A DNA stretch of 50,870 nucleotides from an uncultured Candidatus Saccharibacteria bacterium (GCA_964577595.1 CAZNZK010000002.1:1-50870); one strand, 5' to 3'; numbered from the stretch's first letter, positions 50,320 through 50,478 are shown. A program made the numbers and translations. The notes: a model not told the origin generated them from the letters alone.

Positions 50320-50363
50320 ATTTTTCTTCTTGTGTTTATCCAAAAACGAAGTAGCATAAAGAT

Positions 50364-50445
50364 GGGCGGGTAGCTTAATGGAAAGCGGCGCACTCTTTGG
50401 AAAAAATGTCACGCGCAGTTGGAGGTTCGAAACCTTCCCCGTCCA
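50364..50445 (+). tRNA. Atypical tRNA-like gene with a 21-nt anticodon loop region and G3:U70 acceptor
   Basis: Acceptor GGGCGGG/CCCGTCC-A; D-arm GCTT-AATGGA-AAGC; T-arm GGAGG-TTCGAAA-CCTTC; GCGC/GCGC stem enclosing 21 nt. Anticodon cannot be assigned. Confidence 0.7.
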
Positions 50446-50449
50446 CGTT

Positions 50450-50478
50450 AAGAGTCGCACACAAGGCGACTCTTTTTT
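50450..50478 (+). terminator. Intrinsic terminator after the atypical tRNA
   Basis: AAGAGTCGC-7 nt-GCGACTCTT-TTTT. Confidence 0.8.

Follow-up and report, generated by a model that had tools for sequence, protein, structure and literature searches.

The window analysed here is the 50,870-nucleotide stretch that opens contig C2 of an uncultured Candidatus Saccharibacteria genome (798 kb in 5 contigs, 98% complete, with insertions in its 23S rRNA). Close to its end, the + strand carries a gene for a membrane-anchored class A beta-lactamase-like or PBP-type protein (49252-50319; Pfam Beta-lactamase2 PF13354, E 1.6e-27, and present in the ORF list), an 82-nt tRNA-shaped RNA that begins 44 nt after the stop codon of that gene (50364-50445), and an intrinsic terminator (50450-50480). 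The window stops at a scaffold gap, a run of N at C2:50871-50970 that lies 425 nt from the RNA.

A tRNA-shaped RNA and its transcription unit

Read from 5' to 3', the layout of the RNA is GGGCGGG-TA-GCTT-AATGGA-AAGC-G-GCGC-ACTCTTTGGAAAAAATGTCAC-GCGC-AGTT-GGAGG-TTCGAAA-CCTTC-CCCGTCC-A. The acceptor strands (50364-50370 and 50438-50444) pair at seven of seven positions, G3.U70 included, and are followed by A73 at 50445; CCA is not encoded. The D arm (50373-50386, GCTT-AATGGA-AAGC) consists of a 4-pair stem and a short loop with G18 and G19, and the T arm (50421-50437, GGAGG-TTCGAAA-CCTTC) of five pairs, one of them G.U, and a canonical T loop; both arms are recognised in the sequence, by Rfam and by ARAGORN. 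In place of an ordinary anticodon arm, sequence and folding give a 4-bp GCGC/GCGC stem around a 21-nt loop (50388-50416). The four stems are thus fully paired, with 20 pairs in total, the minimum-free-energy fold is a cloverleaf, and reading the sequence for the core tertiary positions (U8, A14, G18, G19, G26.A44, A15-U48, U54-U55-C56 and A58) finds all of them intact. The Rfam tRNA model RF00005 matches over model positions 1-71 with 49.4 bits (E 1.2e-7; gathering score 29), the sole tRNA match in the window. The paired acceptor with G3:U70 and A73 and the sound D and T arms of the original prediction, which had been made from the sequence alone, are therefore borne out. ARAGORN misses the RNA at default settings; once introns are permitted, it proposes a formal tRNA-Thr(cgt) whose intron would be 12 nt long.

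How this RNA would be transcribed is less clear-cut than its shape. The promoter proposed earlier is present as a pair of elements, TTGTGT (50330-50335) and TAGCAT (50352-50357), with the claimed spacing of 16 nt and with 6 nt left before G1. Its claimed quality did not hold up, however: the pair agrees with the sigma-70 consensus in only 7 of 12 positions, and a promoter scan called no site in the region upstream of the RNA. When upstream regions were compared, the genuine tRNA genes of the genome were found to have better -10 boxes at a similar distance. The terminator fared better, and the strong structure predicted after the RNA is indeed there: AAGAGTCGC-ACACAAG-GCGACTCTT, found by a terminator scan, folds into a 9-pair hairpin (50450-50474, five of the pairs G-C) that starts 4 nt after A73 and is followed by a run of T. 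No terminator-like site is found on the + strand from 50319 to 50364, so the RNA could be co-transcribed with the beta-lactamase-like gene across the 44-nt gap, and we regard read-through from that gene as at least as likely as an independent start.

This arrangement, with its weak promoter, no terminator between stop codon and G1, and a terminator directly after the tRNA shape, would suit a cis-acting element that closes the beta-lactamase-like mRNA on its 3' side, where cleavage by RNase P or RNase Z would define or stabilise the end of the message. A related suggestion is that the tRNA shape is an attachment-site remnant of neighbouring mobile DNA, given that a fragment of a serine recombinase (its zinc ribbon) lies 2.4 kb downstream, past the target gene of the retroelement described below. 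Orthologues of the beta-lactamase-like gene in four family genomes and at 23 metagenome loci have no tRNA-like neighbour, which argues against the first suggestion, and neither half of the tRNA has a second copy in the genome, which led us to reject the idea of an attachment site. Taken together, we consider an origin of either kind unlikely.

One feature of tRNA 3' ends in this genome may be recorded here. At least seven of its CCA-less tRNA genes (e.g. those at C1:192737, C1:213606, C2:142144, C4:1, C4:31541, C4:46191 and C2:143112) carry the trailer motif GG(T/C)ACCAC(T)TT, 3-8 nt past the discriminator, which may be a processing or termination signal. The tRNA-shaped RNA has no such motif.

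The 21-nt loop

The loop ACTCTTTGGAAAAAATGTCAC occupies positions 50392-50412 between the two GCGC strands, and is 21 nt long, or 19 nt if an A.C pair is counted as part of the stem. It contains no GC dinucleotide and consequently no NGC anticodon, in keeping with what had been claimed for it. The combination of a 7-nt loop, U33, a purine at position 37 and a 5-bp stem is likewise absent from this arm. The stem may extend some way into the loop, through an A-U and a C-G pair followed by three U-A pairs under a GGAA tetraloop cap, but with modelled pairing probabilities of about 0.5-0.6 such an extension would be marginal. An anticodon loop has as a rule 7 nt, and the one enlarged working case given in a review is the 8-nt loop of yeast mitochondrial tRNA-Thr (PMC7609411). 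In the same review, irregular allo-tRNA-like genes are presumed to be linked to transposons or toxin-antitoxin systems (PMC7609411). The RNA resembles these cases in departing from the 7-nt loop and in its association with accessory DNA; nevertheless, the working loops have 8 nt and this one 21, and no comparable loop is described in that review.

The simplest account of such a loop would be an ordinary tRNA interrupted by a single block of sequence, whether an intron or the scar of an insertion, both of which had been put forward earlier. We enumerated every contiguous deletion from the loop, and none restores a canonical loop (U33 with a purine at 37) on a 5-bp stem; every 12-nt excision, giving a 7-nt product on that stem, leaves a pyrimidine at position 37. 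The sole canonical product is AUGUCAC (anticodon GUC), which requires a 4-bp stem and an arm that is 2 nt too short. Since a canonical loop cannot be recovered by contiguous deletion, a normal tRNA with one inserted block fails as an explanation, and with it the simple form of the proposed scar in a normal tRNA-Ala, which would in addition call for an NGC triplet. One replacement event, a complex rearrangement or a collapsed intron would each be compatible with what we see. The body looks to have been kept while the anticodon was given up.

A working tRNA from which a mini-intron of 12-14 nt is removed after transcription would share with the intron-bearing tRNAs of bacteria (group I) and archaea (bulge-helix-bulge) the presence of extra sequence inside the anticodon loop. 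It would also agree with the formal ARAGORN solution, obtained by the proposed search with introns allowed, and with the fact that this genome does have an intron in the anticodon loop of tRNA-Asn. The likeness goes no further. A group I intron, which would have to place a catalytic core of some 200 nt or more within the anticodon loop, is far larger than this insert (the Rfam model has 253 positions, and the intron in the tRNA-Asn of this genome is matched over 252 nt), so that self-splicing is out of reach; an Rfam scan of the window finds no Intron_gpI, with the same-genome tRNA-Asn as positive control (53.3 bits). On reading the sequence, no bulge-helix-bulge motif lies beside the stem, because the 8 nt just inside each GCGC strand (CUCUUUGG and AAAUGUCA) are unable to pair. 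The tRNA-intron endonuclease PF01974 is absent from the genome, in a search that was positive in four archaeal controls. With no ribozyme core, no splicing motif, no endonuclease and no canonical loop after excision, an intron in the tRNA-shaped RNA appears unlikely from its sequence, and the short unrecognised intron of the original prediction, as a working device, very improbable.

The intron in tRNA-Asn deserves a comment of its own. By ARAGORN and the Rfam tRNA model, tRNA-Asn is seemingly missing from this genome, while it is conserved in 10 of 12 family genomes. Synteny with the same-genus genome G001 led to a tRNA-Asn(GTT) at C1:~80885-81207 (- strand), in which the anticodon loop is interrupted (CCTGT^TAAGCG) by an intron that spans about 255 nt from one exon end to the other. 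Rfam assigns the insert to the group I introns (RF00028, 53.3 bits, E 1.2e-12, match over 252 nt), and it is this intron that hides the gene from the standard finders; tRNA-Asn is intron-less in G001, at the syntenic site, and in nine other family genomes. The tRNA-shaped RNA is accordingly not a replacement for a lost tRNA-Asn, an idea we rejected as its loop contains no GUU and the real tRNA-Asn has been found.

A second rejected candidate is a mini-tmRNA. The loop contains no stop codon, and the 33-codon frame that opens at its AUG has a poor ribosome-binding site and was treated as chance.

That the loop is a mis-join of the assembly can be considered on account of the nearby run of N and of the metagenomic origin of the genome. 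A chimeric join should not, however, bring together halves that pair perfectly in both the acceptor and the GCGC stems, and the flanks are unique and continuous. An artefact of this kind is in our view highly improbable.

Alanine identity and the tRNA-like RNAs of the genome

AlaRS charges its substrates via the acceptor stem, and the anticodon is left unread. It is in the acceptor stem that the RNA resembles tRNA-Ala. ARAGORN finds 46 tRNAs and one tmRNA in the genome, among them the ordinary tRNA-Ala genes whose presence had to be verified: there are three, all on contig C1, with anticodons cgc, tgc and ggc. The RNA has in common with all three G1-C72, G2-C71, G3.U70, C4-G69 and A73, and where the three tRNA-Ala start with GGGC and end with GUCC-A it is identical to them. 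Among the 46 ARAGORN calls, G3.U70 occurs in the three tRNA-Ala and in a tRNA-like RNA at C1:122634-122704. A scan for acceptor and T-arm combinations adds the tRNA-shaped RNA itself, a further RNA at C5:77329-77399, and three hits that we take to be chance. Tested for membership of the tRNA-Ala family, the RNA thus shows G3.U70 and A73 (GGGCGGG/CCCGTCC plus A) without the NGC anticodon. It shares with tRNA-Ala and the AlaRS minihelix these acceptor marks, together with a cloverleaf body and a canonical T loop; it differs from tRNA-Ala in lacking NGC, in having a loop of 21 nt in place of 7, in its very short D loop, and in a body that is closest to the tRNA-Arg(TCT) of relatives. A single C70-to-U change would turn the acceptor of the resident tRNA-Leu(tag) into this one, so G3.U70 could be the result of one neutral transition.

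Among known RNAs, an analogy can also be drawn with tmRNA, whose tRNA-like domain has alanine identity (G3.U70) and a T arm but no anticodon. tmRNA is without D stem and anticodon stem and carries a tag reading frame; the tRNA-shaped RNA, by contrast, has a 4-bp D stem, a GCGC anticodon-type stem, and no frame with a stop in its loop. There is no Rfam tmRNA match at the RNA, the genuine tmRNA being on contig C3. By analogy with the acceptor/T minihelix of tRNA-Ala and with the tRNA-like domain of tmRNA, the RNA should be chargeable with alanine in the absence of an anticodon.

It is not alone in combining alanine marks with an irregular anticodon region, as the genome has at least three further alanine-type tRNA mimics (44738-44811 in the window, C1:122634-122704 and C5:77329-77399). 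The first of these vindicates the statement that two G3:U70 tRNA-like RNAs occur within 6 kb, but the two are of different designs. The copy at 44738-44811 has G3.U70, A73 and a 9-nt loop, with an exact 13-nt complement, TGTCGAGAACAGG, about 70 nt downstream (~44877-44895). The C5 copy lies between the same flanks and is likewise followed by a complementary RNA, and the copy on C1 has the same G3.U70/A73 design, a 9-nt loop and a related upstream block. The 44738-44811 and C5 copies can be aligned; they have in common a stem-less D region (CTAAGYRGTTCTTGG), an upstream block (TTTAAGAAAAATT...AATTTTAACA) and a leader hairpin.

These cassettes of a tRNA-like and an antisense RNA are comparable to the tRNA-shaped RNA in that both are small non-coding units with G3.U70, A73, a non-canonical anticodon-type loop and a terminator of their own, and the 44738-44811 copy also shares its genome and 6-kb neighbourhood. 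Against this, the cassettes have 9-nt loops and, in the two aligned copies, a stem-less D region, whereas the tRNA-shaped RNA has a 21-nt loop and a real D arm, and it has neither flank nor D region in common with the cassette copies at 44754 and C5:77384. The loop-complementary downstream RNA that is a feature of the two aligned copies has no counterpart here: no complement to the loop beyond chance was found within 425 nt downstream, as far as the scaffold gap, or 460 nt upstream, while the exact 13-nt complement was recovered from the cassette at 44738-44895 as a control. Three candidates from this search were rejected as being at chance level, namely 49901-49915 within the beta-lactamase-like gene (14 of 15 bases), the leader TTTATCCAAA against the loop stretch TTTGGAAAAA (9 of 10 bases), and the 3' arm of the terminator, GGCGACTCTTT, which resembles tRNA positions 24-35. 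On sequence grounds we therefore place the RNA outside the cassette family. It is a lineage separate from the other G3:U70 mimics of the genome, given its true D arm, its different flanks and the lack of an antisense partner, though by analogy it would belong to the same functional class.

Other departures from ordinary tRNA organisation were seen in this genome and elsewhere. Between leuS and a sigma-factor-like gene, the - strand carries a tRNA-like sequence (C1:179627-179701) that stays below the threshold of the Rfam tRNA model with 26.8 bits; its acceptor stem has 6 pairs, GUU occurs in its loop of 9-11 nt, and a terminator-like hairpin lies about 4 nt downstream. For tRNA-Met, tRNA-Thr(ggt) and tRNA-Thr(cgt), the first ~12 nt of the gene itself are copied about 40 nt upstream with the start of the D loop altered (C3:55418-55459, 58280-58318 and 59332-59370). 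In one other genome (L003, G023:C26, positions 1501-1896), at least three direct repeats come after tRNA-Leu(tag); each is about 126 nt long and opens with the last ~20 nt of the tRNA, and together they look like stacked attachment-site scars or cassettes. Finally, a 93-nt tRNA-Ile(tat) called by ARAGORN in another genome (G207:C5:101814-101903, L015) has a long extra arm, a class II-like feature that is unusual for an isoleucine tRNA.

Distribution, genomic context and possible role

It had been suggested that the unit is maintained and that homologues with conserved arms and variable loops be sought, and neither expectation is supported: no long-loop homologue was found in ~1,300 Patescibacteria genomes, in collections of viruses and phages, or at metagenome loci that contain the neighbouring gene. 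In 61 relatives, blastn returned only tRNA-Leu with a similar acceptor, and noise. A covariance model built from the single sequence and run on 401 order-level and 401 class-level genomes scores 116.7 bits against itself; below this it retrieves only ordinary 71-74-nt tRNAs, mostly tRNA-Arg(TCT/TCG), the best an ordinary tRNA-Arg with 51 bits. A pattern combining an alanine-type acceptor with an enlarged middle revealed no analogue in 401 phylum-level genomes; its three hits are false, being ordinary tRNAs whose upstream sequence happens to fit the 5' part of the pattern. Patterns run on species-representative genomes gave no bacterial analogue, a second such scan returning three archaeal intron-bearing tRNA-Ala and one ordinary tRNA-Ala. 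Exact and gapped patterns found no match in viral contigs, nor did blastn against phage records, and no paper came up in a literature search on the anticodon loops or introns of tRNAs from candidate-phyla-radiation bacteria.

The RNA and the beta-lactamase-like gene beside it are missing from both same-genus genomes. Synteny with one of them, G001, extends up to window position 49250 and is then broken. Just past the scaffold gap lies a diversity-generating retroelement (C2:51032-52467). Its bAvd-like gene (PF22296, E 7e-11) is accompanied by a template repeat (~51407-51506) and by a variable repeat (~51849-51950), the latter within the 3' end of a 206-aa gene encoded on the - strand. Nearly all differences between the two repeats fall where the template has T on the + strand, or A when read on the coding strand (T>C 13, T>A 4, T>G 3). 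The reverse transcriptase probably lies within the gap, to judge from G001, where reverse transcriptase (-), Avd (+), template repeat and target follow in the same order and the reverse transcriptase occupies the place of the gap. From the terminator to the gap (50480-50870) run 390 nt of non-coding DNA made up of short units in direct-plus-inverted repeat, without similarity in G001; this tract may serve to control the retroelement or may be origin-like. Since G001 has the same retroelement order with no tRNA-like gene, we rejected a link between the RNA and the retroelement; instead the RNA is part of accessory, fast-changing DNA. Absence from the same genus and location in a variable region together mean that there is no evidence of selection on the RNA.

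How, then, is the RNA to be understood? One possibility is that it is a recently disabled accessory tRNA, without function, which arrived with the variable region and lost its anticodon loop in a single rearrangement, perhaps an insertion-deletion or a collapsed group I intron, with no decay so far in the rest of the gene. Such a history would fit an orphan that is confined to one genome, missing from its genus, and neighboured in variable DNA by a retroelement and a fragment of a recombinase, and group I introns do invade anticodon loops here, as tRNA-Asn shows. The body most like tRNA-Arg(TCT), the weak promoter and a G3.U70 that is one transition from a G-C pair fit equally, and with a left exon ending in U and an insert ending in G the join would read CUCUUCA, one base from the CUCUUAA of tRNA-Lys. 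Yet neither the 20 stem pairs nor the core tertiary positions show any damage, a simple insertion does not suffice to account for a loop that no contiguous deletion makes canonical on a 5-bp stem, and the five alanine-identity positions match the resident tRNA-Ala in a genome enriched in alanine-type mimics. We regard this account as a serious contender that nevertheless falls short of being probable.

Alternatively, and this is the reading we tentatively favour, with a probability of about 0.4, the RNA is a tRNA mimic that can be charged with alanine and does not decode, encoded by a species-specific accessory gene. The choice between the two is close, with a slight preference for the mimic. 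Of the options offered originally, those of an alanine carrier for a non-ribosomal use and of a tRNA mimic make up the preferred class. The intact body and core, the alanine marks, the irreducible loop, the RNA's own terminator and the other mimics in the genome suggest such a role, and we also count in its favour that the Rfam tRNA match is strong despite the large insert. Caution is called for by the lack of homologues, the absence from the same genus, the variable region, the weak promoter, the single transition that separates G3.U70 from G-C and the lack of a FemAB-type transferase in the genome.

As a mimic, the RNA would be transcribed either from the weak promoter in front of it or as a read-through product of the beta-lactamase-like gene, with its end at its own terminator, and its standard tRNA body would be matured by RNase P, RNase Z and the CCA-adding enzyme. 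AlaRS would then charge it with alanine through the five acceptor marks that are identical to those of tRNA-Ala; as the enzyme is blind to the anticodon and the marks are shared, the RNA would be alanylated. The 21-nt loop could not present an anticodon, so the alanyl-RNA would be kept off the decoding pathway. Possible roles include that of a decoy or titrator of factors that bind the top half of tRNAs and that of a source of alanine for a tRNA-dependent transferase. Enzymes of the FemAB type are absent from the genome. A stand-alone 311-aa protein with the LPG_synthase_C/DUF2156 domain (65 bits, C2:~203316-204251) and without a flippase domain is a candidate aminoacyl-tRNA-dependent transferase on its domain match, and a possible user of the RNA. 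A more specific and improbable version would make the RNA a dedicated alanine carrier, charged by AlaRS, kept off the ribosome by its loop, and handing its alanine to an envelope-building enzyme; equally speculative are the candidates for that enzyme, the stand-alone DUF2156/LPG_synthase_C protein or a partner of the adjacent PBP/beta-lactamase-fold protein.

As a variation on the alanine-type cloverleaf, canonical in all other respects, the 21-nt loop is new, and with one copy its biological weight is uncertain. Should the gene be dead, it is an ordinary by-product of the turnover of accessory DNA, and its value is as a warning for tRNA annotation; the case of tRNA-Asn conveys the same warning for genomes of this kind. 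If the carrier version is true, an ultra-small bacterium would have a separate supply line for alanylation of its cell surface. Provided that the RNA is both produced and charged, we would have here a natural tRNA that retains the full cloverleaf and its amino-acid identity while having given up decoding. It would then represent a third design of alanine-type mimic in minimal genomes, beside tmRNA and the antisense-guarded cassettes, and would point to uses of alanyl-tRNA outside translation.
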